DNA of 64,000 nt from Nitrospiraceae bacterium (lineage in GTDB: Bacteria; Nitrospirota; Thermodesulfovibrionia; UBA6902): the NCBI GenBank assembly GCA_003599505.1, contig QZKO01000014.1:7774-71773 (forward strand), given 5' to 3'. How positions within the stretch are numbered: the stretch's first letter is position 1; each line of letters opens with the position of its first letter. Below the pieces are notes generated by a model, which did no database searches, was not told the origin of the DNA, and saw only the letters and a program-made list of their open reading frames with translations. The translations under genes and the position numbers were made by a program. Positions 18,507 through 64,000 of this stretch are shown one piece after another.

Positions 18507-19319
18507 TTAAGTCAATTTGTTCATTAATGATTCTATTCCCAACAGTCCGGACAGAGTAATAATAAAAATTACGATTCCGCTGAAGTTATGAAAAAAGCCC
18601 TGTCCGGCTTCTTCCCCGAAATAGAATGTTATGAGGCATAAAGTTATGACACGAATCAGATTACCAAGCAATGACAGAGGAACGATACAGACGGCAAGGG
18701 CAGATTTCTTTAAAATAGATCCGTTCATAATATAAACATAAACCAGCACCAGGGAAAACATCGTAATCAGAGAACGAAATCCGCTGCAGGGCGCTCCCAT
18801 GAATATTGTAGTGTAACCTATAGTTAATTCGAGCCCCGATCTCGTAATAGGATAATTCAGCAGCGCCAGTATCGATTCTGTCGCGACCGATATAGCGTGG
18901 CGCATGGGTAATGTGATGCTATCCAGAATTCCAAACGGCGGCGGTATTAACAATAGGAGATATAAGATAGGAAAAGATAGTTCTTTTGCCATATCATTTC
19001 CATAAAGATATCCTGTTAAACCGAATAAAAAAGGTATTATGGAAATTATTTGGAAGAAAAAGTAACCTTGACGCAGACCCCAAAGATGCATCGTGAGTCC
19101 CGTTAATAACAGGAAGAGATTGAGAGCATTATTGTAATGACGATCATTTTTATTAACGATTTCTTTCAGTCTCAGCCGTTTTCGCCAGACAAGCCAGATA
19201 GAAAGGGGTAAAATAAAGTAAGCATGTGTGTAATCAATAAAATCCCAGCGCGTTTTGTAAAGGTCGAAGAATTTCGGTATATAAAGAACAAGTGCCAGTG
19301 TCCAGATTAAATAAGTCAA
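18507..19319 (-). CDS. Exosortase (Xrt/EpsH family) polytopic membrane transpeptidase
   Basis: It has about 8 TM segments. A conserved-looking Cys/Arg region, GAPCSGFRSL, is present. It sits adjacent to an EpsI-like gene. Confidence 0.6.
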   Translation of the reverse strand: MTYLIWTLALVLYIPKFFDLYKTRWDFIDYTHAYFILPLSIWLVWRKRLRLKEIVNKNDRHYNNALNLFLLLTGLTMHLWGLRQGYFFFQIISIIPFLFGLTGYLYGNDMAKELSFPILYLLLLIPPPFGILDSITLPMRHAISVATESILALLNYPITRSGLELTIGYTTIFMGAPCSGFRSLITMFSLVLVYVYIMNGSILKKSALAVCIVPLSLLGNLIRVITLCLITFYFGEEAGQGFFHNFSGIVIFIITLSGLLGIESLMNKLT

Positions 19320-23715: not shown

Positions 23716-24799
23716 TGTACAGCATAGGAATGATGAATTTGGGATTTGATATGGCGTTCACAGACCAAACACATTCGTATGTACAGGCACATTTCGTGTT
23801 TTTGATAAACTCCTTACAATCAGTTACCTGTTTATTTTGCCATAGTTTCATGAAATCCATATCATAATCCCTCAGGTTCCCAAGATTTTTATCGTTAAGT
23901 ATCTCACAAGGATAAACATCCCCATTTGCATAAATAACTCCAAAAAGAGAGGCCGCGGAACAATTTACAATAAATTTCTTTTTTATATAGGTCTCCGCAA
24001 CAATTTTACTTACCAATATATTTTTTGAATTCATGAGTCTTCCCTGAAAGTGCTTTTCAAAACCTTTTGTTACTCCGGATAATTGGTCCCTGCGCATTTC
24101 TTTTGTCAAATTAATATATGATTCTAATATCTCCGTTTTTACATCAGAATTAATTTCTCTGACAACTCCGGCCTCCCTCATTATTGTTGCCGTGCATGAA
24201 TCTATTCCAAGACTCTTCAGATATGCATAAAGTTTTAAAACGTTATGGTAGTTATGGTGTGCTATAGTTATGCAGATATTGGGCATTATGTTGACATTCT
24301 TATAAGATTTAACCAAGTGATAACTGTCAAGGACTTTTCGGAATAAACCTTCTACTCCCCTGTTCTTATCATGCTCTTCCTCAAAATTATCAATGGAGAA
24401 CTGGAAAGTCACTTTCCCTTTTATGTTAGAACTGACAAAGCTCTCCAGAAAATCATGAATTCTATCAGTGAAAAACCCGTTTGTCGTTATAAATAATGAT
24501 TGTATATTCGTAGTTGTAAAATAAGCCCTGGCGATATCAAACATATCTTTTCTGAGAAAAGGCTCTCCTCCGGTCAGGTTAACGTTGAACAGGCTTTTTC
24601 CAAATGTCTTTGTCATTCTTTCTATATCATCTAAACTTAATTCATTCTTAGAGACACTCTGATTATTGATGTCAACAAAGCAATGTTCACACCTCGCATT
24701 ACATCTATTAGTTACAAAGTGTATTACGCTGATTGGTTCTTTTTTTAAAAAAAATGAATTAAGAATCAATCCCGGCATTTTATACATTGATTTATTCAT
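23699..24799 (-). CDS. Radical SAM enzyme with SPASM domain (paralog of 8324..9331)
   Basis: TNRCNARCEHC is the CX3CX2C motif. NLTGGEPFLRKDMFDI parallels NITGGEPFIRQDITDI of 8324. The C-terminus has clustered Cys (CSAAS...CEIL...CKEFIKNTKCACTYEC). Confidence 0.75.
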   Translation of the reverse strand: MNKSMYKMPGLILNSFFLKKEPISVIHFVTNRCNARCEHCFVDINNQSVSKNELSLDDIERMTKTFGKSLFNVNLTGGEPFLRKDMFDIARAYFTTTNIQSLFITTNGFFTDRIHDFLESFVSSNIKGKVTFQFSIDNFEEEHDKNRGVEGLFRKVLDSYHLVKSYKNVNIMPNICITIAHHNYHNVLKLYAYLKSLGIDSCTATIMREAGVVREINSDVKTEILESYINLTKEMRRDQLSGVTKGFEKHFQGRLMNSKNILVSKIVAETYIKKKFIVNCSAASLFGVIYANGDVYPCEILNDKNLGNLRDYDMDFMKLWQNKQVTDCKEFIKNTKCACTYECVWSVNAISNPKFIIPMLYNAVKF

Positions 24800-24985
24800 T
24801 TTCTATGCGCGGGTCAGCCGGGCTGGAAATATTAATGATCAAAGTAAACTTGAACAAAAGCATAGAGTCTTCAGACGTTAATTTATCTAATTATAATATA
24901 TTTTAGAATATATAGTAATCACGTGAGGTTACAAAAGCAGTCAAGTTATAAGTAGAATGACCTGTCTTTGATCAGGAAAAAGAGG

Positions 24986-25016
24986 AACCGGACATCATGC
25001 TTTACTCCGTCCGGTT
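24986..25016 (-). terminator. Candidate rho-independent terminator at the 3' end of the minus-strand epimerase gene
   Basis: AACCGGAC-N15-GTCCGGTT forms an 8-bp stem. On the minus strand it is followed by CCTCTTTTTCC. It spans the stop of 25002..25988. Confidence 0.35.
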
Positions 25017-25988
25017 TTCGGTTCGGCTGTATTGTCTTTCGTGAAGCACCCATTGGTATTGGCGACGTACACCGTCGACCAGGCCGATCTTCGGTGACCA
25101 CTCCAGGACATCCCGGGCGCGGCGGGTGTCGATGTTGTAATCCAGGCGCTTTTTAACTCGTTTATGATATTCAATGTCCACCGGTCGTTCGGCAACCATA
25201 CGAACGGCCTCCGCGATGTCCCGGATGCGGCAGCTGCTTCCGTTTCCGATATTAAATATGCCCCGGGCTCTTCGGAACCATGCAAGATAAACCGCCTCGG
25301 CGGCGTCTTCCGCGTAGACCAGGTTCCTTCGATCTTCTCCGTCTCCGTAAATGGACAGGGGAAGGCCTTCGGCCGCCCGATGAATAAAATTGCCGACTGC
25401 CCGCTTGAGGCGATCACCGGGACCATACACGGCCGGCAGACGAAGCGAACAGACGGGCAGGTCGTGGAGGTCCCCGTAGAGATGCAGATATTTTTCGCCG
25501 ATTAATTTGGCGGCCCCGTAAAACGTGAGAGGCAGGGTCGGATGCAACTCTGAAATGATATCGTTTTGAGGGGTCCCATAGACTTCAAAGGAACTGATAT
25601 AGACCAGAGATTGAAGCAAGGGTGCCCGTGCGAGCGCCCGCAACAGGCGAATCGAACCGTGCACATTGTGTGAAAGCAGTCGGACCGTGTCCTCGGGTTG
25701 ATTGGCAGCGGTATTATCGGGGATAAAAGCGGCCGAATGCACCCATCCCTCGATTTGGCCGAGATACGGGCCCAGGGCGTCCACGAAGTCATCGGACGTC
25801 AAGTCTGCCGGCTGAGCATATACGTTGCCGGGCCACGATACCCCGTGTATGGACGGCGCGGTAGCGGGTGAACGGGAAATACAGAGGACAGTGTGCCCGT
25901 TCCGCGTCAAGGCCTGTACGATAAACTGCCCCAGATGCCCGGAGGCCCCGGTGACGGCAATCATGATGAACCTCCCAACACATCCCAC
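25002..25988 (-). CDS. NAD-dependent epimerase/dehydratase (extended SDR), high-GC
   Basis: MIAVTGASGHLGQFIV is the Rossmann GxxGxxG motif. YGAAK supplies the YxxxK catalytic motif. Its codon usage is foreign to the flanking genes. Confidence 0.75.
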   Translation of the reverse strand: MGCVGRFIMIAVTGASGHLGQFIVQALTRNGHTVLCISRSPATAPSIHGVSWPGNVYAQPADLTSDDFVDALGPYLGQIEGWVHSAAFIPDNTAANQPEDTVRLLSHNVHGSIRLLRALARAPLLQSLVYISSFEVYGTPQNDIISELHPTLPLTFYGAAKLIGEKYLHLYGDLHDLPVCSLRLPAVYGPGDRLKRAVGNFIHRAAEGLPLSIYGDGEDRRNLVYAEDAAEAVYLAWFRRARGIFNIGNGSSCRIRDIAEAVRMVAERPVDIEYHKRVKKRLDYNIDTRRARDVLEWSPKIGLVDGVRRQYQWVLHERQYSRTENRTE

Positions 25989-26866
25989 ATCAGCTTCAAC
26001 CCGTCGGGGAAATCGGTTTTCGGGTCGAATCCGAATGCTTTTCTGGCCCGATCAATGGTATACCAGCGATCGACCCATGAGCTCTCCCGATAAAGGATTT
26101 CAGGCTGTATGGGCCGGCAGGACAGGGCGCAGACGGCGTCCGCAACGTCTTTCAGTGTATGCGGCCGGCCGGAAGAGATGTTGAAGACGCCCTCTGCGCC
26201 TTTCCGGATAACCTGCTCGATGGCTACAGCTATATCCTTGACGAAAATATCGTCTCTGATTTCAGCTCCGGTTCCATGGATGACAGGACGTTTGCCTTGT
26301 TTCACGCAATCCATAAATAGGGGAATGACATTGCGCCGGTGCTGGCCGGGTCCGTATATGAAAGCGAGCCGGAGGTTGCAGAGCTTGACGCCCCGTTTTT
26401 CACAGGCAATCCGGAGAAAATGCTCCGCGCAAAGTTTGGCCACGCCATACAGGGTGAACGGATCAGTGGGGTGCGATTCATCGACCGGGAGATTGCGGGG
26501 TCTTCCATACACCTCGATGCTGCTGATGTGAACGACGCTATCCGGCGCGTCGGGCAACCGGTCCAGGAATTCCAGCGGAGCCCGCACCATGAGGTCAATG
26601 TCCGAATGGGCAAATGAATCGGACTCCCGCTGTTGCGTGATGTGGGCCGCTAACCAGACCAGTACGTGCATAGGCCCTGCTTCCCTGATCGCCTTATCGA
26701 GATCCTGCCGGTCAAGCAGGTTTCGCTCATGGAATTGCTCGCCGTTAAAGGGACCTCCCTCGGGGGGACGCAGGTCGAACGAAACGACTTCCATGCCGCT
26801 GTCCAGCAGTTGCCGGACGACATGCCGGCCCAAAAACCCGCTGGAACCTGTAACCACCGCTTTCAT
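25961..26866 (-). CDS. NAD-dependent epimerase/dehydratase (extended SDR), high-GC
   Basis: MKAVVTGSSGFLGRHVV and YGVAK are present. Its 3' end overlaps the next gene by 28 nt. Confidence 0.75.
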   Translation of the reverse strand: MKAVVTGSSGFLGRHVVRQLLDSGMEVVSFDLRPPEGGPFNGEQFHERNLLDRQDLDKAIREAGPMHVLVWLAAHITQQRESDSFAHSDIDLMVRAPLEFLDRLPDAPDSVVHISSIEVYGRPRNLPVDESHPTDPFTLYGVAKLCAEHFLRIACEKRGVKLCNLRLAFIYGPGQHRRNVIPLFMDCVKQGKRPVIHGTGAEIRDDIFVKDIAVAIEQVIRKGAEGVFNISSGRPHTLKDVADAVCALSCRPIQPEILYRESSWVDRWYTIDRARKAFGFDPKTDFPDGLKLMWDVLGGSS

Positions 26867-27159
26867 AAAACTGCTCCGATTTTCTCCACGAGAAAATTAC
26901 CTGCCGCAAATTATCATACCACACTCAGAGTAGTATTTTTCCGGTTAGAAAGCCCGGCACCTGCGCTACATATAGCTTGACTTATCGAGCAGTGCGGGAT
27001 GCGCAACTGATTGCGTATTGTGTTAATATAAACAATGAGTTCTGCAATGCCGGCATCATTTATTTACCGTACTCATACTATTCTATTGCCTGATACCGAA
27101 ATCCAGATTTAATAATTGTTTATTTTACTGATTTATAGTGAGGGAAAAAACTATATTCA

Positions 27160-28131
27160 ATGAAAAAAGAAACAAGTAAGCTTGAAGGAAGTAACGTGCT
27201 CGTAACAGGCGGGTGTGGTTTCATAGGGTCACATTTGATAAGAAGACTAATCGACTTGCACGTCGGCAGTATTACGGTAATTGATAGTTTGAAGTATGGC
27301 GATAAAGCAAATATAGGCAAAGAGTCTGAGAATATTATAGTAATAAAATATACAATTGATAATAAAAACGATGACGTTCTTTACGAGGCTCTTCATGGAA
27401 TCGACTATTTATTCCACTTAGCTGCAGAGAAGCACAATCAATCTATCAATAACCCTACAGATGTGATAAACAGCAATATAAACGGGACGTTCAGGCTCTA
27501 TGAAGCTGCTGCCAGGAATAGAGTCAGGAAAGTGGTTTATGCATCATCTCTTTATGCCTATGGTCGTATGTCTGTTCCCGATATGAACGAATCGGAATTG
27601 CCGGCGCCGAAAACAATCTATGGAATTTCCAAATTGGCAGGGGAACTCTTCCTTGCTCACTACTTACAGAAAAATGACCTGAAATATAACGTGTTAAGAT
27701 ATTTTTTTACTTATGGCCCTAAACAATTCAGCGGGACGGGATATAAATCTGTTATCGTGAAAAATTTCGAAAGAATTTTAAGAAATGAAAACCCGATAAT
27801 ATTTGGCGATGGGAAACAGGTATTGGACTACATCTATATCGATGATGTCATAAGCGCCACCATTAAGGCAATGGAGTCGGATTGTTATGGTGAAGTATTT
27901 AACGTTGGGTCATCTATTCCCTCTTCAATAGATCAAGTTACTGACGTGATGCTCAGAGTCAGCGGAAAGTCACTTGATAAACTATATGACCCGCCTGATG
28001 AGACAAAAGATACATACAGAGTAGCCGACATTTCAAAAATCAAAAAAATATTAAACATTCAGCCCACTGTATCACTTGAAGAAGGACTGAGCAAAACATA
28101 TGAGTGGATACAACAGAGAGGGAATGTATGA
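27160..28131 (+). CDS. NAD-dependent epimerase/dehydratase (UDP-sugar 4-epimerase / UXS-like extended SDR)
   Basis: VLVTGGCGFIGSHLIRRLI and YGISK are present. It has no TDE triad, so it is unlikely to be a 4,6-dehydratase. Its codon usage is native and AT-rich. Confidence 0.8.
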   Translation: MKKETSKLEGSNVLVTGGCGFIGSHLIRRLIDLHVGSITVIDSLKYGDKANIGKESENIIVIKYTIDNKNDDVLYEALHGIDYLFHLAAEKHNQSINNPTDVINSNINGTFRLYEAAARNRVRKVVYASSLYAYGRMSVPDMNESELPAPKTIYGISKLAGELFLAHYLQKNDLKYNVLRYFFTYGPKQFSGTGYKSVIVKNFERILRNENPIIFGDGKQVLDYIYIDDVISATIKAMESDCYGEVFNVGSSIPSSIDQVTDVMLRVSGKSLDKLYDPPDETKDTYRVADISKIKKILNIQPTVSLEEGLSKTYEWIQQRGNV

Positions 28132-36190: not shown

Positions 36191-37300
36191 TCAATTAATA
36201 TTTGCAATGATATCATGTAACGCTTTAACAGTTATTTGTTGTTCGTCATCGGAAAGGGAAGGATACATAGGTAGAGAAAAGATCTCTTTAGCAGCATCCT
36301 CCGTATGAGGTAAATCACCCTCTTTGTAACCTAAAAACTGATAACCTGTCATGGCATGAATGGGCCATGGATAACTGATATTAACGAAAATGTCTCTGTT
36401 TTTCAGTCCCTCAATAATCTGATCTCTACGGGGGTGCCGGCAAACGTATAAATAATATACATGCTTATTGCCCTGCTTTGTTTTCGGTAAGGTAAGTTTC
36501 GCGTTTAATAACATGTGATCATATTTTTGTGCAAGAAGTCTTCTGCGCTTTATATATTCTTCAATATGTTGCAGCTTACTTAAAAGAATCGCCGCATGAA
36601 GCTCATCGAGTCTTGAATTGTAACCGTGCTCTACTGAATAATATGTCTTCTCCATGCCGTAAAAACGAAGCCGGAGCAGTTTCTTGTACAGCTTTTCACT
36701 ATTTGTTAAAACCATACCACCGTCTCCATACCCGCCGAGGATCTTGGTTGGGTAAAAAGAGAAGGCTGAAACGTCTGACATAGAGCCGGCCTTATTGCCG
36801 TTAAAGATCGCTCCATGACTCTGGGCGCAGTCTTCAAGGACCTTGAGACCATAAGCATCAGCTACCCGTTTGACGTCGTCCATATTTACGCATTGGCCGT
36901 AGAGGTGAACCGGAAGGATACACTTTGTCTTCTTCGTAACTGCTTTCTCCAGCAAAGAGGTGTCCATAAGGTAAGTTTCCGGGTCTATGTCGACAAATCT
37001 TGGAACTGCGCCGGTTGAAACAATAGCCGATACCGTCGGGACAGCGGTATTGGACACGGTTATTACCTCATCTCCAGGACCTATACCTAATCCCTTCAGA
37101 CCGAGGAATATAGCATCCGTCCCGCTATTGACACCTACTCCGAATTTTACTCCGCAATATTCAGCAAATGTTTCCTCAAATTTCTTTACGTTCTCTCCGA
37201 GTATCAGGCATCCCGACCTCAAGACCTTTTCTATCGAGGCATGAATCTCCTCTTTTTCCTGTTCATATTCTTTCAAGTAGCTCCAAATTTTTATAGACAT
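36191..37300 (-). CDS. DegT/DnrJ/EryC1/StrS-family PLP-dependent sugar aminotransferase
   Basis: GVNSGTDAIFLGLK and SAFSFYPTKILGGYGDGGMV (PLP Lys) are present. Confidence 0.85.
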   Translation of the reverse strand: MSIKIWSYLKEYEQEKEEIHASIEKVLRSGCLILGENVKKFEETFAEYCGVKFGVGVNSGTDAIFLGLKGLGIGPGDEVITVSNTAVPTVSAIVSTGAVPRFVDIDPETYLMDTSLLEKAVTKKTKCILPVHLYGQCVNMDDVKRVADAYGLKVLEDCAQSHGAIFNGNKAGSMSDVSAFSFYPTKILGGYGDGGMVLTNSEKLYKKLLRLRFYGMEKTYYSVEHGYNSRLDELHAAILLSKLQHIEEYIKRRRLLAQKYDHMLLNAKLTLPKTKQGNKHVYYLYVCRHPRRDQIIEGLKNRDIFVNISYPWPIHAMTGYQFLGYKEGDLPHTEDAAKEIFSLPMYPSLSDDEQQITVKALHDIIANIN

Positions 37301-37303
37301 TCG

Positions 37304-38305
37304 TTACTCCTTCAATAAGGCGGCTGACCGCATTCTGTGCAACACGCGTGCGTCTGAAAGCAAATTTTCTATAAGATATTTGTGATCCCCTCCCTGAACT
37401 GCTTCAATAACTTTTTGCATATAGATTGAAAAACTGTCGGCTTTAGGAACCTTTATCACGGCACAGGTATTGCGATGTCTGACCTGTATTTCGTTTTCCA
37501 TCTCTGCAGGAGTTGTGAAGATGCGCTCGATGGCGGCGTATACCGTGGGGCCAATCAAGCCGAGGTAATTGCTGTATTCCGTATCAAACCCGAAATGACC
37601 CACCATGGACCTCCCCCCTTTATAGGCTGCAAGCATGCTGAAAGAGGTCTCCACGTTATCGCTTCCGCCATAACTGCAAATCCTGCAGAAAACCTTCTCA
37701 GGTTCTTCCCCGAAAAATAACCTGCCGACAGATACCGCGTAAGAACCGAGATCCAAAAGAGCTCCTCCGCCGAGATACTTCTTATATCTGAAATCATCGG
37801 GTTTTAAGGGAGGGAAAGAAAACACCGCCGTTAACCTTGTCGGGCCGCTTTTTGTTTCAGAATAGATATTCCTGATGGCCTGTATTTGCGGGTGAAAAGC
37901 ATAGACTGTCGCCTCGGATAAACATAAACCGGATTTTCGGGCCAATTCCGCCAGGTTTTTCGTAGTCTCGAAATCAGTGAATGCCGGTTTGTCGACAATT
38001 ACGTGAAATCCGCGTAAAAGCGCTTTCTCTGCCCACTTGGCGTGTTTGCTGTTAACGGTTGAAATATAAACCAGGTCGGCTCTGCTTTTTGCCAAAGCGG
38101 TATCATAATCATCAAATATTTCACCTTTATATTTATAAGGCAGTGATATCTTTGATGCGGACGACAGCGAAGCTACGTCTACGCGCGTGATAGAAGGGAT
38201 GACAGACAGGGCGGGTATGACACGCTTTTGTACAATGCTGGAATATCCAATAAATAATATATTCATTTTAATATGTAAAAAGTCCGTTAAATGAAGCTTA
38301 AACAA
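37304..38305 (-). CDS. Gfo/Idh/MocA-family NAD(P)-dependent oxidoreductase (sugar-nucleotide dehydrogenase / ketoreductase)
   Basis: The N-terminus MNILFIGYSSIVQKRVIPAL is a Rossmann fold. An EKP-type motif region (GFHVIVDKPAF) is present. Confidence 0.75.
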   Translation of the reverse strand: MFKLHLTDFLHIKMNILFIGYSSIVQKRVIPALSVIPSITRVDVASLSSASKISLPYKYKGEIFDDYDTALAKSRADLVYISTVNSKHAKWAEKALLRGFHVIVDKPAFTDFETTKNLAELARKSGLCLSEATVYAFHPQIQAIRNIYSETKSGPTRLTAVFSFPPLKPDDFRYKKYLGGGALLDLGSYAVSVGRLFFGEEPEKVFCRICSYGGSDNVETSFSMLAAYKGGRSMVGHFGFDTEYSNYLGLIGPTVYAAIERIFTTPAEMENEIQVRHRNTCAVIKVPKADSFSIYMQKVIEAVQGGDHKYLIENLLSDARVLHRMRSAALLKE

Positions 38306-39738
38306 GAAAGTATGTTTCTTGCCTCAATATTTAAATAATTATTATACTTTTTAAAAGTCATTATTTGATTCAAAGTCATCCATTTATAATTTTCAGGTAT
38401 ATCTATCAATGTGGAATCATCTATCTCGACTATCATGTTCTTGTTCTGCCAATGATAAAACCTTCCACCTTCTTCAGATTGGATAGAATAATATCTTATC
38501 CGGGTCGGGTCAGCACTTATAAAAATCTCCAGAAAAGGTGGTTTATTTGACTGCCGCATACGGTATGCAGCATCTGCGCATGATACCGTAGGAGCCATCT
38601 CAACGACGTCAAGATTCCCGGGTTCCGGCTTTCCCTGAACCAAAAAGTGGAGTACGTTGTGTATCTTCTTGACAAGAAAGCCTATCAGACCGTAGGAATA
38701 ATGCTTTAATAACGGCTGGGTCCACGTCAAAACCTCCCTGCTTCCAGCTGTTACCGAAACCGCGATCACGGAAAAGAATTGCCCGGATTCATGGTGAATT
38801 TCTTTATCAGTGCATATCCACCCGGATACCGCCTTCAAAGGGATATTCTCTACCTTCATATAATATTTTGTTTTTAATTCCGTGAACCAGCTGATTATTT
38901 CATCTGTATTGTGAAGGGCCCGCTTTTCGTCAATTATTGAAGTAAATATGTCTTTACAAAACCCTTGAAGTTTGCAGTCAAACAGTTCTATCTCGTCGGG
39001 CTCTCCTGACAGCAAATATTCATAACCCCGCCTCATCTCATCATTAATAAAGGGGATGCATGATATGACCGATCTGGTATCCATATTTACAAAATTATCA
39101 AGGGACAGAAGTCTCTTTATTTGTCCTAACGTAAGCCATTGGAAGTCATCGTACAATTGTATGTCTTCATCCACTTCAACTATCATATTCCGGTTCCGTT
39201 TGCGCAGAAAACGTGACCCCTGTTCTGACTGCAGCTGGTCTATGAGAATTGTTGATTTCGACCTGTCAAGAAAATACTCAAGATAAGCAGGCAGTTTACC
39301 TTTATGTACCTGAGTGTAGTTGCTTTTGGTGGCCTGAACCGTGGGCGACAGCTGGTTGATATTTATATTGCCGGGCTCCATCTTTGACTGCATAAGGAAA
39401 TACCTTATCCCATCAACCTTCTTTGTAACTATTCCCAGAATGCCGATCTCAGGCTGGTTGATGATAGGCTGTTCCCAGTCTTTAAAAGGGCCGAAATTAG
39501 TATGTACTCTGATGCCCTCAACTTTGAAAAACTTCCCGGAAGCGTGAACAAGATTTTGCGAATCTTCTTCGAAATACCATTTGTCAAGTTTCTCAAATGA
39601 AATCTGTTCTACAGAAAATAAATTTGCTGTTTCCCTTGAATTAAACCAGTGAATAAAATCGTTTGTCTTCAGGAAACGATTTTCTTCCGTTAGAGCGGAC
39701 AAAAGGAAGCTGGATTCTTTAGATTTTGTGTTGAACAT
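38287..39738 (-). CDS. NDP-hexose 2,3-dehydratase (EvaA/TylX3/Hexose_dehydrat family), two tandem homologous domains
   Basis: An internal duplication is visible. HASGKFFKVEG...GILGIVTKKVDGIRYFLMQSKMEPGN (N-terminal half) parallels HESGQFFSVIA...GLIGFLVKKIHNVLHFLVQGKPEPGN (C-terminal half). The protein is about 480 aa, typical of the family. Confidence 0.6.
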   Translation of the reverse strand: MFNTKSKESSFLLSALTEENRFLKTNDFIHWFNSRETANLFSVEQISFEKLDKWYFEEDSQNLVHASGKFFKVEGIRVHTNFGPFKDWEQPIINQPEIGILGIVTKKVDGIRYFLMQSKMEPGNININQLSPTVQATKSNYTQVHKGKLPAYLEYFLDRSKSTILIDQLQSEQGSRFLRKRNRNMIVEVDEDIQLYDDFQWLTLGQIKRLLSLDNFVNMDTRSVISCIPFINDEMRRGYEYLLSGEPDEIELFDCKLQGFCKDIFTSIIDEKRALHNTDEIISWFTELKTKYYMKVENIPLKAVSGWICTDKEIHHESGQFFSVIAVSVTAGSREVLTWTQPLLKHYSYGLIGFLVKKIHNVLHFLVQGKPEPGNLDVVEMAPTVSCADAAYRMRQSNKPPFLEIFISADPTRIRYYSIQSEEGGRFYHWQNKNMIVEIDDSTLIDIPENYKWMTLNQIMTFKKYNNYLNIEARNILSCLSFI

Positions 39739-39752
39739 CTTTATCCGGAAAT

Positions 39753-40208
39753 CTAACTCTTTGTTTTTGTCGTGTAATTAAAGTTGTTCTTTACGGTTTC
39801 CATGTATTCTTCCCAGCTTCTAATTGATTTCGAAATATCATAATGCGTGTTAGCCAATACCACGCATACAGCATCGCCGGAAAAATCATAGATTCTTATA
39901 AAAATCATCCTGGGGATATAAAGTCCTCGAGTTGCATCATTCAACTCATATATCTCTGAATTAATTCCATCAGACAGGTTTATTTTAAACGAACCGGAAG
40001 AAGCAATAACAATTTGGTCGGTATCAACATGAGCATGTCCACCTCTTGGAGAGGAAATATGGTGCATATAGAAAATTCGTTTTATACTAATCGGAATATC
40101 AAATTCGCTCTCTATTGACGTCAAGGTGCCCCTCGAATCGGTAATAGATGGTAATACGATCCATTTGACATATTTTAAGCTTGGCTTTGAAATCTGTTTT
40201 GGCGACAT
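39753..40208 (-). CDS. FdtA/QdtA/WxcM-like cupin (sugar 3,4-ketoisomerase / epimerase-type)
   Basis: DSRGTL...RIFYMHHISSPRGGHAHVDTDQ...SGSFKINLSDG matches the FdtA-type RG.HAH...G......DG pattern. It is about 150 aa. Confidence 0.55.
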   Translation of the reverse strand: MSPKQISKPSLKYVKWIVLPSITDSRGTLTSIESEFDIPISIKRIFYMHHISSPRGGHAHVDTDQIVIASSGSFKINLSDGINSEIYELNDATRGLYIPRMIFIRIYDFSGDAVCVVLANTHYDISKSIRSWEEYMETVKNNFNYTTKTKS

Positions 40209-40234
40209 GATTCTTATAATACTATCTAAGCGAG

Positions 40235-41089
40235 CTATTTCTTATGACAAACAACGGTTTGAAAATATGTGCTTCGCATTAATCGACTTAACATAAATAT
40301 TCCCCACACCCCGCTCCGGAAAATGGCGTTGAATATGGGAGATTGAACAGGGGAATCGACTGCGGACAGAGGGAAATTATGAAAAAGTATTTTCTTGACG
40401 GACAATTCATTAATATGTAACAAATGGCTGAGAGAAGAAACATTGAAGTGATTGAGATGATGCCTGTTGTAGAGTCGTTCAAGAGGCATAGTACAGCCAA
40501 ATCGATGGAGCAAGCGTGAAATTCCATAAATAATTCCCCGATCGTTTACGGTCGTAATTATTACTAATCCGTTTGGAGAACATAATTCATAAAGACGCCT
40601 GGTGAATTTCTGAACATCTGCCACATGTTCTATAACGGCTGTGTTAACAACAACATCAAATTGCCGATTTAAATCAGCACTGAAAATATCAGCATGTAGA
40701 AAATGTACCCCTTCGACAGGAGAATTCTCATACAGGTCTATGCCGGTTAAGGATAACCTGTGATTTTTCTTTCGGAGAAACTTAAGAAAATCACCTCTCC
40801 CGCAACCTATATCGATAACAGAAGCATCAGGTTTGAAATTTGTAATAGATTTATTATACGTCTCGAACAGGGCAATATTAGGATTATTAAACCAATTAGC
40901 ATGTGAGACATTAAAATATTCAGAATCATATTCTTCAAAATTACCTTTAAGGTCGCTAAAGCAATGATCACAATTTGGGCAACGATAGAGGTTAAGGTCA
41001 GAAAAACTATACTCCATGAAACTCATTGCGCCACAAATTGTACAGTTTAATTCTTCAGCATTATTACTTTTTATCGCCATAGTATTCAT
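40235..41089 (-). CDS. Class I SAM-dependent methyltransferase with N-terminal Cys4 zinc ribbon
   Basis: CTICG...CPNCDHC supplies four Cys. VIDIGCGRGDFLKFL is motif I. Zn-ribbon methyltransferases occur among sugar C- and O-methyltransferases. Confidence 0.65.
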   Translation of the reverse strand: MNTMAIKSNNAEELNCTICGAMSFMEYSFSDLNLYRCPNCDHCFSDLKGNFEEYDSEYFNVSHANWFNNPNIALFETYNKSITNFKPDASVIDIGCGRGDFLKFLRKKNHRLSLTGIDLYENSPVEGVHFLHADIFSADLNRQFDVVVNTAVIEHVADVQKFTRRLYELCSPNGLVIITTVNDRGIIYGISRLLHRFGCTMPLERLYNRHHLNHFNVSSLSHLLHINELSVKKILFHNFPLSAVDSPVQSPIFNAIFRSGVWGIFMLSRLMRSTYFQTVVCHKK

Positions 41090-43150: not shown

Positions 43151-44548
43151 ATGAAAAATAAAAAAATATTATTAGTCAATCTTCCTTTTGAAAAAATATA
43201 TGAGAAAACATCATTAAAGGGGGTTGCTCCATCTACCCCTCCTTTGGGGCTGGCATGTATTGGCGGAAGTTTATTGCAAAACGGACATGAAGTGAAATTG
43301 TTTGATTTCAATATCTATGGAACGGGAGAATTCGTAAAAATATTGGAAGATTTTGCTCCGGATTTTGTGGGGATAACTTTTGTCACTCCTTTGATTAGAG
43401 AAGCCCAAAAAGTATCAGAGCTTGTTAAAAAAATCAATAGGAAAATTATTGTTATCGGCGGAGGGCCGCATTGTTCTTCTTTCCCCGAATCTTCTGTAAA
43501 AGAAGCATTATTAGATATCGGGGTCATTGGCGAGGGAGATTTTATCATAAATGAGATAGCTTCGGGAAAGGACCTTCAGCAGATAAAAGGCATAGCATAT
43601 AAAAAGGGGGATGAAATAATTACCAATGAGAGAGAAGACTTCATAAAAGACCTGGATTCACTTCCTTTTCCTGCCTACCCGCTTTATGAAAAAGAAAAAT
43701 ATAAAGTGCCCGCTGCAATCGCCCGGGAGAACCCCGTAGCATGGGTTGAAACCTCGAGAGGGTGCGTGTTTGGATGTATTTACTGCAATAAAAGCTGTTT
43801 TGGTAAAACTTTTCGCGTTAAATCCCCGGAAAGGATTGTTGAGGAGTTTGCTGAAGTAAAAAAATTGGGGTTCAGGGAAATTCATTTAACAGATGATGGT
43901 TTTACAACGAATATTAAACGTGCAAAGAGAATATGTGACTTATTGATTGAGTCAAAAGTGAATATTGGCTGGAGTACAATAACCGGTATCCGCGTAGACA
44001 GGGTCGATTTTGAATTGCTGGGCAAAATGCGGCAAGCCGGATGTTACCGGGTATACTTCGGAATCGAGTCAGGGAATCAAGAAATACTTAATAACATAAA
44101 GAAGGGAATAACTTTAGAACAAGTTAGAAAAGCCGTTGAATCGGCCAAAAAAGCAAAACTGGAAGTTGCGGGGTATTTCATGATAGGACTCCCCGGAGAA
44201 ACTGAAAAAACAATGCAGGATACAATCAGGTTTGCAAAATTACTTGATCTGGATCTGGCTAAAATAAGCATCACTATCCCTTTGCCCGCAACGGAAATAT
44301 TTAATGAACTGGATACAAAAGGCCTGATAAAAACTCATGACTGGGAAAAATTTAAATTTTATTCTACCCCTTCAACAATTTATGACCATCAAAACTTATC
44401 CTGGCCGACAATTGAGAAATACTATGCAAAGTTCTACAAGGAGATATACTTAAATCCTAAATTCATACTCAGAAGATTTAAAAACGGTTTAGTGAATAAA
44501 ACATTAATCGATGATTTTAAAATGTTCATACAAATGAAGTGGACTTGA
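43151..44548 (+). CDS. B12-binding-domain radical SAM enzyme (class B), paralog 2
   Basis: MKNKKILLVNLPFEK begins the B12-binding fold. SRGCVFGCIYCNK is CX3CX2C. Confidence 0.8.
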   Translation: MKNKKILLVNLPFEKIYEKTSLKGVAPSTPPLGLACIGGSLLQNGHEVKLFDFNIYGTGEFVKILEDFAPDFVGITFVTPLIREAQKVSELVKKINRKIIVIGGGPHCSSFPESSVKEALLDIGVIGEGDFIINEIASGKDLQQIKGIAYKKGDEIITNEREDFIKDLDSLPFPAYPLYEKEKYKVPAAIARENPVAWVETSRGCVFGCIYCNKSCFGKTFRVKSPERIVEEFAEVKKLGFREIHLTDDGFTTNIKRAKRICDLLIESKVNIGWSTITGIRVDRVDFELLGKMRQAGCYRVYFGIESGNQEILNNIKKGITLEQVRKAVESAKKAKLEVAGYFMIGLPGETEKTMQDTIRFAKLLDLDLAKISITIPLPATEIFNELDTKGLIKTHDWEKFKFYSTPSTIYDHQNLSWPTIEKYYAKFYKEIYLNPKFILRRFKNGLVNKTLIDDFKMFIQMKWT

Positions 44549-54106: not shown

Positions 54107-55534
54107 TTATTTTTTCTTGTAAAACACCTTCATGTAATGAAGGCTGAAACTTAAGACTTCCTGTACTCTAAGTCCTTCAGATTTTATGTAGACGAGAAAA
54201 TAAATAAACTGAAACCACAGGTTGAATAACGGATTTGGAGGAAGTTTTACGAGTTTTTTTATTAATGGGAGGGTCCAGGGGAAAAGGACGGCAGTCTGGA
54301 AAAACCTTTGAATGTTAAGGAGTTCGTTTATATTATTGTTTTTCATGACCGACCCCTTGTAATAAGAATCATCTATGGAATTAATATCGAAGTCTTTATC
54401 AAGGAACCCCTCTTCCTTGGCATAATCGACAATTTTAGTGCCTGAGTACGGATTATAAACCGAACACCAGGGGTAAGCGGTTTTGATCCTGATATTCAGG
54501 TCGATAGTCTCAAAGGCCTGCTCAACTGTTTCCCCGGGAAGGCCCGTCATGCAGTAGGCCCTGAACTTGATGCCATATTTTGTCAGCAACCCTGCGGTCT
54601 TAATGATCTGATCGTCACTGAGATTTTTTTTCAATATCTCATTTCTCAATTTTTCATTTCCGGATTCCATTCCGAATCTGGCAATACAACAACCGCTTGT
54701 CTTGAGTTCTCTTACCAGTTCTTCGTCCAGCATATCCGCCCTGATTAAACCGATATAAGGCAGATTAATTTTTTCCCTGTAATACCTCAGGAAATCCAGC
54801 GCCCATCTTTTGTTTATGAACATAATGTCCGATATGAAAAAAACCCGCTTAAAATCATATCGGGATTTTACCTGAAGTATTTCTTCGATTATATTTTCTT
54901 TACTTCTGAACCTTGTATATTTGCCCTTTCCCCTATACATTTCTTTCAGTTTGTGATTAAAACAAAAACTGCAGTCGTAGGGACATCCCCGCACGCCGAG
55001 AAAATTCTTTACAGACAGATTTTTGAGGAAGGGATAATTATCATAATAGAGTTCGAGGTCCATAAAAGGTAACTCATCAAGGTTTTCAATCAAGTGGCGG
55101 AGGTCGTTTTTATATATCCTGTCTTTCTGTTTAACCCAAAGATTAAGGATATTGGCAATATCGCTGTTATTATCAAGGGCGTTCATTAAATCCAGCATGG
55201 CATATTCACCCTCTCCGCGACAGATGATATCCACTCCTTCCTCTTCAATAACCTCGGGGAAATATGTAGGATGCACCCCCCCGAAAACTACTTTGATATC
55301 CGGGAATTCCTTTTTAACTTCCCGGCAAACATTTAAAGCCCAATGCTGCATGCCGCTCATAAGTGAAAAACCTATCACATCAGGAATATTTTTCTTCAGG
55401 GCCTTTACAAAACCGGCCGGTTGTGTGTCTATCACCATATTACAATTATGACCATGTTTTTTAAGCACTGCCGATACGTACTGTACCCCCGGGAATTCTG
55501 CTTTAATATTCTGAAAAAAAGTGATCGTGGCCAT
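54107..55534 (-). CDS. B12-binding-domain radical SAM enzyme (class B), paralog 3
   Basis: GVRGCPYDCSFCFNH is CX3CX2C. An N-terminal B12-binding-like domain is present. It shares overall collinearity with 19507 and 43151. Confidence 0.8.
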   Translation of the reverse strand: MATITFFQNIKAEFPGVQYVSAVLKKHGHNCNMVIDTQPAGFVKALKKNIPDVIGFSLMSGMQHWALNVCREVKKEFPDIKVVFGGVHPTYFPEVIEEEGVDIICRGEGEYAMLDLMNALDNNSDIANILNLWVKQKDRIYKNDLRHLIENLDELPFMDLELYYDNYPFLKNLSVKNFLGVRGCPYDCSFCFNHKLKEMYRGKGKYTRFRSKENIIEEILQVKSRYDFKRVFFISDIMFINKRWALDFLRYYREKINLPYIGLIRADMLDEELVRELKTSGCCIARFGMESGNEKLRNEILKKNLSDDQIIKTAGLLTKYGIKFRAYCMTGLPGETVEQAFETIDLNIRIKTAYPWCSVYNPYSGTKIVDYAKEEGFLDKDFDINSIDDSYYKGSVMKNNNINELLNIQRFFQTAVLFPWTLPLIKKLVKLPPNPLFNLWFQFIYFLVYIKSEGLRVQEVLSFSLHYMKVFYKKK

Positions 55535-58036: not shown

Positions 58037-58318
58037 ATGGATAAAAGAAATTATGGAATGCTTCTGATTGTTGTATCTGTTATTGTAGCCGTTGTTTATA
58101 CTTTCTGGGTCCCATTAAGTTACCTCCTGAATGATGGAAAAGAGCCCCTCATCCTCAAAGACATTCTGCCGCCTCCGATATGGGGGATAATAATCCCGGT
58201 ATTCCTTCTGATGCTGTTCACGACGTTTATTTTCAGTTGGATCGGATGGAACATTTTGCATGCTCCACCGCAGGAAGAAACTTCCTTAAAGGATTTAGAA
58301 GGTAAACGAGCAGATTAA
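58037..58318 (+). CDS. Small two-TM membrane protein (hypothetical)
   Basis: It encodes 93 aa with two hydrophobic helices. It is an isolated plus-strand ORF and could be non-coding. Confidence 0.3.
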   Translation: MDKRNYGMLLIVVSVIVAVVYTFWVPLSYLLNDGKEPLILKDILPPPIWGIIIPVFLLMLFTTFIFSWIGWNILHAPPQEETSLKDLEGKRAD

Positions 58319-60417: not shown

Positions 60418-61089
60418 ATGATCCTCGGATATAAGATAATCTTTATACTTCTTGTCGCCTTTGCGGTGATATTTATTTACGCAAGAGGGTATTACCCTAT
60501 ATTTTTTCTGAGAGACCCCGCCAGGAAGCTTCCTCCGGAAGGAAATCATATTTACGCTCCGGCAGACGGCAGAATCGCCTATATAAGAGAAATTAAAGAT
60601 GGAGATGTTCCTATCTGTATTAAAGCAGGGAAGATAATCCCTCTTGAAGAAATCACAAGAAGCCACCTTAATGAGATAAAAGACGGTTATATTGTCGGTA
60701 TTATCATGAGTTTCTGGAATGTACATATTCAGCGGGCCCCGATATCAGGAAAAGTCATTGATCAGATCTATGTGCCCGGACGTTTCTTTGATGTTGGAAT
60801 TAATGCCGGGAGAATGTTGAAAGAATCAGAAAGGAATGTATTGATATTAAAAGATCCTGTCAGGAATTTCAGCACCATTACTATTCAACTGGCCGCAATC
60901 TGGGTAAGAAGAATCGTAAGCCTGGTCAAAAAAGGAGACGAACTAAAACTGGGTCAAAGATATGGATATGTTAAGTTCGGGTCCCAGGTAGATATTATTA
61001 TCCCTGACCTTAAAGGGTTACAGTTTACTATTAAGAAGGGCCAAAAGGTTTACGCCGGGGAAACAATTATTGCCCGCTACGATACCTGA
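60418..61089 (+). CDS. psd: Archaeal/short-type phosphatidylserine decarboxylase proenzyme (pyruvoyl-dependent)
   Basis: An N-terminal TM is present. WNVHIQRAPISGKV matches the H..R.P..G motif. The C-terminal VKFGSQVDI matches the FGS(R/Q)VD self-cleavage site of short PSDs. Confidence 0.7.
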   Translation: MILGYKIIFILLVAFAVIFIYARGYYPIFFLRDPARKLPPEGNHIYAPADGRIAYIREIKDGDVPICIKAGKIIPLEEITRSHLNEIKDGYIVGIIMSFWNVHIQRAPISGKVIDQIYVPGRFFDVGINAGRMLKESERNVLILKDPVRNFSTITIQLAAIWVRRIVSLVKKGDELKLGQRYGYVKFGSQVDIIIPDLKGLQFTIKKGQKVYAGETIIARYDT

Positions 61090-61100: not shown

Positions 61101-62063
61101 ATGGTACAAGAAAGAAATACCAAACCTGTCATAGCAATTGTAATACCCTGTTATAATGAAGAATCTGTATTAAATGAAACATCACAACAGCTTAATACTC
61201 TTGTAGAGAAACTTATCCGGAATAACAATATAAGCGACCAGAGTTTCATATGTTTTATTGATGACGGGAGCACAGATACAACCTGGGATAAAGTAGAGGA
61301 ACTGCACTTCAAGAACAACAGGATTAAAGGTGTGAAACTTTCCCGCAATGCCGGCCATCAGAACGCATTAATGGCCGGTTTGGACAGCGTGTACGAAAAA
61401 ATTGACTGCGCTATCTCTATAGATGCTGATTTGCAGGACGATATTTCAGTCATTGAATCGATGGTCGAACAGTTCAATAAAGGCTTTGAAGTTGTATATG
61501 GTGTAAGGAGAAAAAGGGAGACTGATACTTTATTAAAGAAGAATACTGCTTTGATTTTTTACAGACTCATGTCTTGTTTTGGTATTGACATGGTTTATAA
61601 TCATGCAGACTTCAGGCTCTTGAGTAAAAATGTTATCGGACATTTAAAATCGTTTAAAGAGGTTAATTTGTTTTTGAGGGCCATGATCCCTTTAATTGGT
61701 TTCAGATCAACAAATGTTTATTATGACAGAAAAGTCAGATATGCAGGGACCTCAAAGTATTCCGCAGGGAAAATGATAGCCTTTGCGTTGGACGGGATCA
61801 CTTCTTTCAGCATTACCCCTTTGCGATTTATCACCGTTATCGGCTGCGTTTTGTTTATATCTTCACTTATCTTGACTGCATGGGCGTTTATGGTCACCAT
61901 TCAGCATAAATCTATACCGGGTTGGGCATCGACCGTATTGCCGATCTACTTTATCGGAGGGATCCAATTGTTATCAATAGGCATTATAGGTGAATATTTA
62001 GGGAAAATTTATAAAGAAGTAAAGGCCCGCCCCAGATATATAAAAGATATAGAACTGTTTTAG
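61101..62063 (+). CDS. GT2 polyprenyl-phosphate glycosyltransferase with C-terminal TM hairpin (ArnC/GtrB-like), paralog of 41064..42026
   Basis: IAIVIPCYNEESVLNE...FIDDGSTDTTWDKV...IDADLQD is GT-A with DXD. Two C-terminal TM helices are present. Confidence 0.75.
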   Translation: MVQERNTKPVIAIVIPCYNEESVLNETSQQLNTLVEKLIRNNNISDQSFICFIDDGSTDTTWDKVEELHFKNNRIKGVKLSRNAGHQNALMAGLDSVYEKIDCAISIDADLQDDISVIESMVEQFNKGFEVVYGVRRKRETDTLLKKNTALIFYRLMSCFGIDMVYNHADFRLLSKNVIGHLKSFKEVNLFLRAMIPLIGFRSTNVYYDRKVRYAGTSKYSAGKMIAFALDGITSFSITPLRFITVIGCVLFISSLILTAWAFMVTIQHKSIPGWASTVLPIYFIGGIQLLSIGIIGEYLGKIYKEVKARPRYIKDIELF

Positions 62064-62078: not shown

Positions 62079-64000
62079 ATGAAATCTGATCAGAAGCAAA
62101 AACCGACTAACGGAGTGTCATTTTTACATTTATTTCGTTTAACTTTTGTGCTGTTTTCCCTTTACTTATTGAGAGAAGCTTTCAATCGCTGGGACGGGTT
62201 TTTGTTCTATGCCACTTTTTCTGAATTTGTTCCTGCGGTTGCTCTTGTTTCAATCCTTTGGACCATTGTAGCGCTTTTGGCGACCCTTTTGCTGTGGACA
62301 CTATTTAGGTTATTTGAAAGTCTGTCCGCCCGAATAGGATTAAAGATAAGAACTGCCCATTTATTGCTGTATGGAGTAGCCGGTGTATTGTTAGGCGGAT
62401 TAGTCTGGAAAACAAAGAGGCTATTATGGACTGACGTACAAACGAGCGATCAATTGAAAATTATTTTATTTGTAGCTGTAGCGCTCGTGTCCGCGTACTC
62501 GGTATGGGTGCTTCGCGATAAGGCGCAGCACTGGTTTAATATTGTACAGGACCGGATTACACCCCTGGTATGGTTGTTCGGTTTTATTGTATTTATTTCT
62601 GTGCCTGTTGTGGTTTCGTCTACATGGGGGAAGAAAGTCGAAAAACCGGTGCCCGAAAAATTCAATCAAACCTCTTTATCACAATCAGACAATAAACGTC
62701 CTAACATTATTCTGGTAATATTTGATACCCTGACGTCGCGGGACATGTCTCTGTACGGATATAGTAGGGAGACAACGCCGTTTATCACTGAGTGGGCAAA
62801 GAATGCCACAGTATTTACGAGGGCGGAAGCGAGCAACAATCATACTTCACCTGCTACGGCCAGCCTCATGACAGGCAAGAGGGTCTGGTCTCATCAGGTA
62901 TATCATCAAAAAGGATCGATTCCTGTAAAGAGCGATATAGAAAGTCTGCCGGGAGAATTAAAGAAATATGGCTACTATAACGTGGCTTTTGTTGCCAACG
63001 GTTCTGCTTCCACTCCAAAATTGGGAATATTTGACAACTTCGATATTTCTTTGCTGGTTTCCGAGTTTTACCAGCCGGATAATCTGGTCTTTCTTGACCC
63101 CTATCAATACGGACGCATTGATATATTGCTCTATAAAATATTCGGTGAAAAAATCAGACTGCATGACTGGATACTGGGCACTAAATTATTAGGGACCCTG
63201 GAGCCGCTTATCGCTAAATTCAGTCACAATACGGAAACAGCGGTACCGCCGGAAGTTGCGTTTAACAAGTTTCTGGAGATTTATGACGATATTCCCGAAC
63301 CTTTTTTTGCGTGGATCCACGTTCTTCCGCCGCATGCCCATTATTTGCCCCCGAAGCCCTACCTGGGTATGTTTGGTTCCACCCGACCGGCTGAACGATA
63401 CATGGGGGATAAAGAATTTAACATGGAAGAGGAGCGGACCCGTTATGATGAATTTATCAGATATTGTGACAAACAGTATGAAGAATTTATGACTGAGTTA
63501 GAGAAGAGAAAGAAGTCGGAAAATACCACTGTTATTTTTTCGTCTGACCATGGAGAAAGTTTTCAACATGGTTTCTTTCAGCACGCTGTCCCCGCTCTAT
63601 ATGAGCAACTGACCAATGTGCCTCTAATAATAAAAGAACCGGGCAAACCGGATGGGAAGGTTATTCACGACACAGTGGAACAAATCGATATTCCGGCTAC
63701 AATGCTTGACCTGGCCCATATACCGGTGCCTGAGTGGATGGAGGGACGTTCCCTGCTCCCATATATGCGTGGTGAAGCACTCTTACCAAAGACCGCATTC
63801 TCTATGTATTATCAGACAAATCCGAGTCGTGGTCATCAAATTACCAAGGGTCTGATTGCTGTCTGGGAAGGCGACTATAAACTGATACACCATTTAGAAA
63901 ATGAAAAATCACTCCTTTTTAACCTGAAAGAGGACCCGGAGGAATTGGAAAATCTCTTTGGCAAAGAACCGGAAACAGGAAAGCATTTGCTTGATCTGAT
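62079..64000 (+). CDS. Membrane-anchored sulfatase-fold phosphotransferase (Thr-nucleophile type), 3'-truncated by window end
   Basis: N-terminal TM helices are present. NIILVIFDTLTSRD...NNHTSPATASLMTG aligns with the sulfatase CSPSRASLLTG motif with C->T and R->T substitutions. VIFSSDHGE is the DHG metal site. The ORF is open to the window end and is not in the ORF track because it has no stop. Confidence 0.6.
   Translation, partial: MKSDQKQKPTNGVSFLHLFRLTFVLFSLYLLREAFNRWDGFLFYATFSEFVPAVALVSILWTIVALLATLLLWTLFRLFESLSARIGLKIRTAHLLLYGVAGVLLGGLVWKTKRLLWTDVQTSDQLKIILFVAVALVSAYSVWVLRDKAQHWFNIVQDRITPLVWLFGFIVFISVPVVVSSTWGKKVEKPVPEKFNQTSLSQSDNKRPNIILVIFDTLTSRDMSLYGYSRETTPFITEWAKNATVFTRAEASNNHTSPATASLMTGKRVWSHQVYHQKGSIPVKSDIESLPGELKKYGYYNVAFVANGSASTPKLGIFDNFDISLLVSEFYQPDNLVFLDPYQYGRIDILLYKIFGEKIRLHDWILGTKLLGTLEPLIAKFSHNTETAVPPEVAFNKFLEIYDDIPEPFFAWIHVLPPHAHYLPPKPYLGMFGSTRPAERYMGDKEFNMEEERTRYDEFIRYCDKQYEEFMTELEKRKKSENTTVIFSSDHGESFQHGFFQHAVPALYEQLTNVPLIIKEPGKPDGKVIHDTVEQIDIPATMLDLAHIPVPEWMEGRSLLPYMRGEALLPKTAFSMYYQTNPSRGHQITKGLIAVWEGDYKLIHHLENEKSLLFNLKEDPEELENLFGKEPETGKHLLDL

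Follow-up and report, generated by a model that had tools for sequence, protein, structure and literature searches.

Two membrane proteins encoded in a 64-kb stretch of a Nitrospiraceae genome (contig QZKO01000014.1; hereafter the window, meaning the whole stretch) are probably not sulfatases but inner-membrane enzymes of the alkaline-phosphatase superfamily that move phospho-head groups onto a surface glycan. The first, P1 (62079..64000, + strand), joins five transmembrane (TM) helices to a catalytic domain of the S1-sulfatase type, and the second, P2 (10592..12139, - strand), joins five TM helices to a divergent domain of the alkaline-phosphatase/sulfatase fold. In both, a threonine occupies the position of the formylglycine cysteine of sulfatases and would serve as the nucleophile. 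The phosphotransfer chemistry appears fairly secure for P1, because its active site matches that of the phosphoethanolamine (pEtN) transferases residue by residue; the same logic would apply more weakly to P2.

From its start at 62079 on the + strand, the open reading frame (ORF) of P1 spans 640 codons up to the end of the window, where it is cut off. An ortholog that is 85% identical (P0001) has 657 amino acids (aa), so that some 17 residues of P1 are missing. P2 has 515 aa and is 100% identical to the NCBI entry 'hypothetical protein C4526_02060 [Nitrospiraceae bacterium]'. Homologs of P1 number at least 805 among the matches listed, with best scores above 1,000 bits, and the P2 family, clustered at 50% identity, has 15,720 representatives at E<=1e-3, of which 8,305 reach E<=1e-30; this very large family has no Pfam model of its own. 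With so many homologs in both families, chance is no concern. AlphaFold2 models built on the family alignments are confident for both proteins (mean pLDDT 85.7 for P1 and 87.6 for P2), each with five long helices at the N-terminus and an alpha/beta domain behind them, and hydropathy and loop charges are in both cases consistent with an N-in/C-out topology and a periplasmic catalytic domain. Together with the Pfam and Foldseek matches given below, these models bear out the original prediction, made from the letters of the window, of two proteins with an N-terminal TM bundle and a sulfatase-fold domain. The membrane domain of P1 (aa 1-184; 62079..62630, + strand) contains many near-invariant residues, e.g., W38, D39, G40, E49, P52, P162 and W165, which argues for a role in lipid binding over that of a plain anchor.

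The replacement of the formylglycine cysteine by threonine, likewise part of the original prediction, is confirmed by several alignments. The strings on which it was based are present, NNHTSPATASLMTGK at aa 253-267 of P1 and MTTAPSLSSSL at aa 224-234 of P2. T256, the proposed nucleophile of P1 (codon 62844..62846, + strand), aligns in HMMER with the serine or cysteine of S-x-P-x-R in 5g2v and 7p24, and also with the serine of SSPTR in E. coli AslA and the threonine of EptC. T226, its proposed counterpart in P2 (codon 11462..11464, - strand), falls on T256 when the two families are aligned by hhalign. Threonine is found at position 256 in 106 of 109 genomic genes of the P1 type (family 1), and one of the exceptions is a bona fide CLPSR sulfatase that was clustered in by chance. 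Position 226 is threonine or serine across the P2 type (family 2), with Thr in 106, Ser in 14 and Cys in none of 120 proteins, and the proline that follows is not conserved. The immediate context reads T-S-P-A-T in P1 and T-A-P-S-L in P2, and the P-x-x-x-L-x-T-G context of the nucleophile is kept in P1.

The homologs P0001-P0120 of P1 are publicly named 'arylsulfatase', 'arylsulfatase A-like enzyme' or 'DUF4976 domain-containing protein'. That the two proteins are true sulfatases, as such names imply, using the threonine or an unrecognised modified residue, is scarcely credible. It is true that P1 matches the Pfam models Sulfatase (5e-44) and SGSH_C, the C-terminal subdomain of S1 sulfatases (1e-20), and that sulfatases head its sequence and fold matches in the PDB; yet a C/S-x-P/A-x-R motif occurs nowhere in P1 or P2, and no column of either family alignment carries one consistently. 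A conserved cysteine or serine in a C/S-x-P-x-R context elsewhere in the domain, the finding that would speak against the original prediction, was found in neither protein; each has a single cysteine, and neither family has a conserved one. The sulfate-binding residues are replaced as well. In the P1 family the position of the motif arginine (260) is T, V or A, the GKWH block (K-x-H) of 5g2v lies opposite VANGS, and the sulfatase lysine after D-x-G has become H502, conserved in 107 of 109 genes, so that by alignment P1 appears to lack the sulfate-binding arginine, the Lys-x-His block and the lysine. The curated NCBIfam cut-offs for sulfatases are missed widely (137 against 481 bits for arylsulfatase and 107 against 433 for choline sulfatase), and P2 matches no sulfatase model at all. 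As for maturation, no anSME model was recognised in an NCBIfam scan of the radical-SAM genes at 8324..9331, 19507..20898 and 54107..55534, and no FGE-type enzyme is annotated among the ORFs of the window scanned with Pfam (most ORFs, with about four of at least 150 aa left out). The radical-SAM/SPASM gene at 8324..9331 was considered as an anaerobic sulfatase maturase and rejected, there being no anSME among its 25 best NCBIfam matches. The name 'arylsulfatase' for the Thr-type proteins of family 1 is thus likely to be a systematic misannotation.

The active site of P1 resembles that of EptA and MCR-1. The Zn1 ligands of MCR-1 are E246, T285, D465 and H466, with H395, H478 and E468 nearby (PMC5216409); the corresponding residues of P1 are D216, T256, D490 and H491, with H419, H502 and E493, all of them invariant or nearly so, and D216, H419, D490 and H491 are invariant in family 1. 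The motif D490-H491-G-E493 ... H502 (63546..63584, + strand) matches SDHGES...LHG of EptA and D465/H466/E468/H478 of MCR-1, and the SDHGESF...H segment of P1 aligns directly with SDHGESLGENGIYLHG of EptA. As judged from these alignments, P1 carries the full EptA/MCR-1 catalytic set: every active-site residue has an equivalent, including the DHGE motif and the distal histidine, with the glutamate ligand represented by an aspartate. The overall plan is also shared, since EptA/LptA, MCR-1 and EptC/CptA possess five N-terminal helices and a periplasmic sulfatase-fold domain with a threonine nucleophile, as do P1 and P2. The segment of P1 from TM3-5 through the threonine aligns weakly with the NCBIfam EptA/CptA models and with E. 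coli EptC, and the EptA_B_N domain was not detected in P1 by the Pfam scan.

By the scheme proposed here, which is modelled on LtaS, GacH, EptA, MCR and BcsG (10.1101/337519; PMC5216409; PMC11470070), the metal-activated threonine (T256 in P1, T226 in P2) would attack the head-group phosphodiester of a phospholipid at the outer face of the inner membrane, whereupon diacylglycerol would be released and a covalent phospho-threonine intermediate left behind. In P1, the metal would be held by D216, T256, D490 and H491, with H419, H502 and E493 completing the site. The phospho-substituent would then pass to a hydroxyl of the surface glycan (exopolysaccharide, O-antigen or lipopolysaccharide (LPS) core) made by the surrounding gene island. 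For P1, the leading candidate for the transferred group is phosphoethanolamine from phosphatidylethanolamine (PE), with phosphoglycerol (GroP) as a possible alternative.

The precedents for phosphoglycerol transfer, LtaS/LtaP, GacH and OpgB, resemble P1 and P2 in having a membrane domain and an extracytoplasmic sulfatase-fold domain; they use a covalent threonine intermediate through which a lipid head group reaches a glycopolymer, as is proposed for P1 and P2. GacH, encoded in a polysaccharide gene cluster, decorates a wall polysaccharide via such an intermediate with a membrane lipid as donor (10.1101/337519). The likeness is limited in several respects: LtaS and OpgB give P1 only weak sequence matches (28 bits for the LtaS model, with a cut-off of 970, and 7 bits for OpgB), GacH has 11 TM helices as opposed to five, and the predicted ligand set of P2 is Asp/Thr/Asp/Glu as opposed to Glu/Thr/Asp/His. 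The GroP-binding His/Arg of LtaS, GacH and OpgB were not identified in P1 or P2, which show neither the Mn site nor the scores of this class.

P1 and P2 were originally described as paralogs, a term which proves too strong. Their family profiles align in hhalign with 90% probability (E 1.5e-6, 390 columns), yet the identity over the profile alignment is about 19% and BLASTP returns a single 28-residue patch. When all 79 long ORFs of the window were scanned, each family profile matched only the other protein. The hhalign register pairs D216 with D185, T256 with T226, H419 with H361 and D490-H491 with D420-E421, and hhalign and the fold searches agree on the hallmarks of the alkaline phosphatase superfamily fold, an alpha/beta core in which an Asp follows strand 1, the nucleophile sits at the N-terminus of a helix and a late strand is followed by an Asp-x pair. 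By these comparisons the two proteins appear homologous, as distant superfamily members that belong to two separate families. P2 itself has no match by sequence in Pfam, NCBIfam, PDB phmmer or PDB profile searches, including the sulfatase and pEtN-transferase models of NCBIfam and Pfam. In Foldseek, full-length EptA, MCR-1 and EptC rank first for P2, and this ranking, together with the hhalign of the two family profiles, places its modelled structure in the sulfatase/Ept/LtaS branch of the superfamily.

Several observations weigh against a transferase role for the two proteins. Taken as a whole, P1 resembles the S1 sulfatases, which are hydrolases, more closely than any transferase. Genuine formylglycine sulfatases and phosphonate monoester hydrolases supply all of its best matches in the PDB by sequence and by fold, its top 50 Foldseek matches comprise only S1 sulfatases or phosphonate monoester hydrolases, and its NCBIfam scores are 137 bits for arylsulfatase, 45 for pEtN transferase and 28 for LtaS. 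In P2, an invariant E421 stands where all relatives have a histidine ligand, in the pair that corresponds to the 'DHG' motif (D420-E421; codons 10877..10882, - strand), and counterparts of H478 and E468 of MCR-1 are lacking, so that the second histidine of the EptA/LtaS pattern is missing. The P2 profile finds no characterised enzyme by sequence. The psd gene discussed below as a hint to the donor is absent near a P1 homolog of 64% identity and from 73 genomic family-1 loci, and a search of the literature for either family, for the peptide motif of the P2 cassette or for Thermodesulfovibrio 'arylsulfatases' returned nothing relevant.

Part of what was claimed for the two proteins is qualified accordingly. 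The choice of a phosphotransferase over a sulfatase finds support in the loss of the motif arginine and the lysine from P1, but less in the overall similarity of P1, which favors the S1 sulfatases. The LtaS/EptA-type substitution pattern holds for P1, which has the full MCR-1/EptA set, but not for P2, with Glu in place of His and the second His missing; P2 does not have the catalytic set of a pEtN transferase, possessing neither the second His nor the Glu of EptA and MCR, to which it shows no similarity at the sequence level. Of its predicted site, D185, T226, H356, H361 and D420 are kept alongside E421. The predicted all-oxygen Asp/Thr/Asp/Glu set suggests that P2 binds a hard metal, Ca, Mg or Mn, rather than Zn. 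Alignment with known enzymes, proposed originally as a check, had a similarly mixed outcome: T256 of P1 falls on the AslA serine and the EptC threonine, whereas the P2 family profile yields nothing significant against E. coli EptA, EptB, EptC, OpgB, BcsG or AslA.

The position of P1 between the known classes is best seen from its composition. It has both the N-domain and the C-terminal subdomain of the S1-sulfatase fold, and thereby shares the complete two-subdomain catalytic architecture of the S1 sulfatases (choline sulfatase, BT4656, AslA and ARSA) and the phosphonate monoester hydrolases, which give it its best sequence and fold scores; yet it lacks their Cys/Ser-x-Pro-x-Arg motif, has their sulfate-binding residues replaced and is fused to an N-terminal 5-TM domain. 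The Ept enzymes, in turn, are without the SGSH_C subdomain that P1 carries. The curated cut-offs for pEtN transferases are missed too (44.7 against 500 bits for P_eth_NH2_trans, 42.6 against 561 for EptA), so that P1 falls widely short of the cut-off of every named NCBIfam family. P1 may thus be described, from its sequence features, as a chimera in character, its scaffold and C-terminal subdomain being those of an S1 sulfatase, its catalytic set of the EptA type and its membrane domain similar to that of EptA.

These affinities raise the question of whether P1 and P2 are periplasmic hydrolases, i.e., phosphodiesterases, phosphatases or pyrophosphatases that trim phosphorylated groups off lipid-linked intermediates, LPS or glycan, with water as the acceptor. 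Threonine-nucleophile hydrolases of the same fold exist (NPP, PafA and the ENPPs), the nearest structural relatives of P1 are all hydrolases, and genes for NPP-type Phosphodiest proteins accompany family 1 in 10 loci. Such a function is nevertheless unlikely in view of the strong conservation of the 5-TM domain and its weak similarity to that of EptA/EptC, the identity of the catalytic set to that of pEtN transferases, and a gene context which is biosynthetic and not catabolic. It is less likely still that the proteins are without catalytic activity and act, as PbgA/YejM does, as sensors or scaffolds in the membrane, binding lipid or LPS and controlling envelope biogenesis: all residues predicted to hold the metal or to serve as nucleophile vary little or not at all in hundreds of divergent homologs, which indicates selection for catalysis. 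Transfer of a phospho-head group to a glycan is therefore retained as the probable function.

The genes around P1 bear on its donor and partners. P1 is preceded on the + strand by a phosphatidylserine decarboxylase-like gene (psd; 60418..61089), the first gene of an apparent psd-GT2-P1 operon, and by a GT2 glycosyltransferase of the PgfS/ArnC/GtrB type (a polyprenyl-phosphate sugar synthase; 61101..62063), which carries membrane helices at its C-terminus and is encoded 16 bases upstream of P1. The same gene order recurs at the three loci of the 85% orthologs. An assignment of PE as the donor from the adjacent psd gene was rejected, as the linkage is limited to those three loci; since psd is absent beyond the close orthologs, it offers weak, local evidence for a PE donor. 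At 58037..58318 (+ strand) lies a gene for a 93-aa two-helix membrane protein, an ortholog of which has weak DPM2/PIG-P matches. One possibility is that it serves the nearby polyprenyl-phosphate GT2 as a small activating subunit, as GacJ does for GacI. A membrane-anchored protein of 463-468 aa with a weak GDSL/SGNH match is encoded convergently to P1 orthologs and more distant homologs in 8 loci, e.g., at 10037..11428 (-) of locus L001 and 8030..9436 (-) of locus L004, a position that corresponds to just past the end of the window; it is possibly an O-acyl-modifying partner of P1.

Family 1 is concentrated in metagenome-assembled genomes of Nitrospirota/Thermodesulfovibrionia, with many copies per genome at separate loci. 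The genes also form tandem arrays of up to five full-length members (650-720 aa), with five in a row at locus L036 and four in a row at L056 and L050; L034, L006 and L008 are further loci of this expansion. Recurring neighbors among the 73 family-1 loci include GT2 enzymes (32 loci), B12-radical-SAM proteins, epimerases, PMT_2 GT-C proteins and NPP-type phosphodiesterases, as well as methyltransferases, aminotransferases, the SGNH-like membrane protein and carbamoyltransferases. The NPP-type Phosphodiest proteins, of about 605 aa and cytoplasmic-looking (PF01663, 4.5e-43), occur near family-1 genes at 3301..5118 of locus L028 and in 9 other loci, and represent a second member of the alkaline-phosphatase superfamily in these clusters.

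P2 closes a run of genes on the minus strand, which consists of a DegT/LegC-type aminotransferase (16139..17248), an ArnC-like GT2 (15295..16059), a PMT_2-type GT-C (13723..15264), a 67-aa ORF (13514..13717), a 456-aa ORF (12147..13517) and P2. The last three genes form a cassette. Its first gene codes for a 67-aa membrane peptide with a signal-like segment, the sequence AYAYLDxGTGSY, one TM helix and a basic tail, and the second for a cytoplasmic 456-aa partner, the C-terminal half of which is a class I S-adenosylmethionine (SAM)-methyltransferase domain. Among 61 metagenomic loci with sufficient flanking sequence around a P2 homolog, 30 have a homolog of the partner immediately upstream, and in further loci a second P2-like gene is placed between the two; a small ORF comes next upstream in 31 of 57 loci. 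The cassette is also seen in Eisenbacteria, in Blastocatellia and on one unassigned 184-kb contig. With the copies at 5387..6995 of locus L079, 5387..7004 of L080 and 4712..6341 of L081 included, the peptides have 67-79 aa, with the motif AYAYLDPGTGSY, a single TM helix and a basic tail, and the partners 456-471 aa.

Homologs of the partner from different phyla share 55-72% identity, or 65-72% in one of the comparisons, and its database matches exceed 8,000, including an Aenigmarchaeota archaeon, WOR-3 and Anaerolineales. Its methyltransferase half matches Methyltransf_23 weakly in 35 of 38 members (best E-value 5.6e-6), along with a marginal PDB match. In the N-terminal half, D115-x4-N120-x11-D132 is invariant and has the look of the catalytic loop of a kinase; this half has no Pfam or PDB match, those searches detecting the methyltransferase half alone. 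Kinship of this half with the kinases E. coli WaaP and WaaY was tried with hhalign and did not hold (probability 0.1-0.2%, not significant); in the non-significant WaaY alignment D115, N120 and D132 lie opposite the kinase D-x4-N...D residues, a lead and not a finding. P2 is proposed to work with the peptide and the methyltransferase-like protein of its cassette, and the conserved methyltransferase partner suggests for P2 something beyond plain pEtN or GroP transfer.

A parallel is offered by cellulose secretion in E. coli, where the 5-TM pEtN transferase BcsG moves pEtN from inner-membrane PE onto nascent cellulose and BcsF tethers a cytosolic partner to the membrane (PMC11470070). The BcsE-BcsF-BcsG module, like the P2 cassette, groups the genes of a 5-TM sulfatase-fold enzyme, a small peptide that crosses the membrane once and a cytosolic protein. 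The likeness is one of analogy only: BcsG is matched by neither the P1- nor the P2-family profile, the gene order differs, and the cytosolic partner of P2 is methyltransferase-like and not a c-di-GMP sensor.

The location of both genes in glycan operons, as originally stated, is borne out, for the whole 64-kb window is one long glycan-biosynthesis island. It includes several GT4 and GT2 glycosyltransferases, at least three GT-C-like proteins (PMT_2, GT87-like), a GT9 heptosyltransferase-like gene, a Wzy_C protein, epimerases and an acyltransferase. A compact deoxy-amino-sugar pathway is found at 36191..41089 (- strand), with a DegT aminotransferase, a GFO/IDH/MocA oxidoreductase, an NDP-hexose 2,3-dehydratase, an FdtA-like isomerase and a methyltransferase. 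At 17842..19319 (- strand), an XrtB/XrtV-like exosortase (196 bits) adjoins an EpsI-family (DUF3485) protein, a pair which indicates a PEP-CTERM-type protein-sorting system inside the island. The radical-SAM genes are three of the B12-binding type (19507..20898, 43151..44548 and 54107..55534) and two of the SPASM type (8324..9331 and 23699..24799), and B12-radical-SAM genes also adjoin family-1 genes in 16 other loci. The G+C content rises up to 0.46 at 24001..28000, which spans three epimerase/dehydratase genes, compared to 0.34-0.42 elsewhere in the window. An Rfam scan of the window returned no match.

A broader reading, speculative and rather doubtful, would join these elements. The peptide, the 456-aa protein and P2 would form an undescribed three-gene system, widespread in bacteria and present in some archaea, whereby the cytoplasmic enzyme, with its possible kinase-like half and its SAM-methyltransferase half, would prepare a methylated phospho-donor or cap (e.g., N-methylated PE/phosphocholine or methyl phosphate), the peptide would tether it to the membrane, and P2 would move the group onto a surface glycan through its Asp/Thr/Asp/Glu metal site. 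For the possible cap, a comparison is provided by WbdD, which adds methyl phosphate. As a separate part of this reading, family 1 would represent a living intermediate that links the S1 sulfatases to the pEtN transferases and has expanded in Nitrospirota, where its arrays reach five genes.

The core idea of a Thr-type phosphotransferase is textbook knowledge for the LtaS/EptA branch of PF00884, and known biochemistry is not overturned by the present findings. The novelty is modest but real, and is found in both proteins: P1 represents an uncharacterised lineage misnamed 'arylsulfatase', in which the scaffold of an S1 sulfatase appears to be joined to a catalytic site and a membrane domain of the EptA type, and P2 a very large family with an altered predicted metal site and a conserved three-gene cassette. 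If taken literally, the label 'arylsulfatase' would wrongly suggest the use of organosulfates in the sulfur-cycling Thermodesulfovibrionia/Nitrospirota, where the active site points to phosphotransfer, and inferences on sulfur metabolism could be distorted by the misannotation of family 1. P1 further suggests that an EptA-type threonine site can sit on a full S1-sulfatase scaffold, which bears on the switch of nucleophile and specificity in the alkaline-phosphatase superfamily, and the P2 family with its strikingly conserved partner constitutes a well-defined target for finding a new glycan modification.

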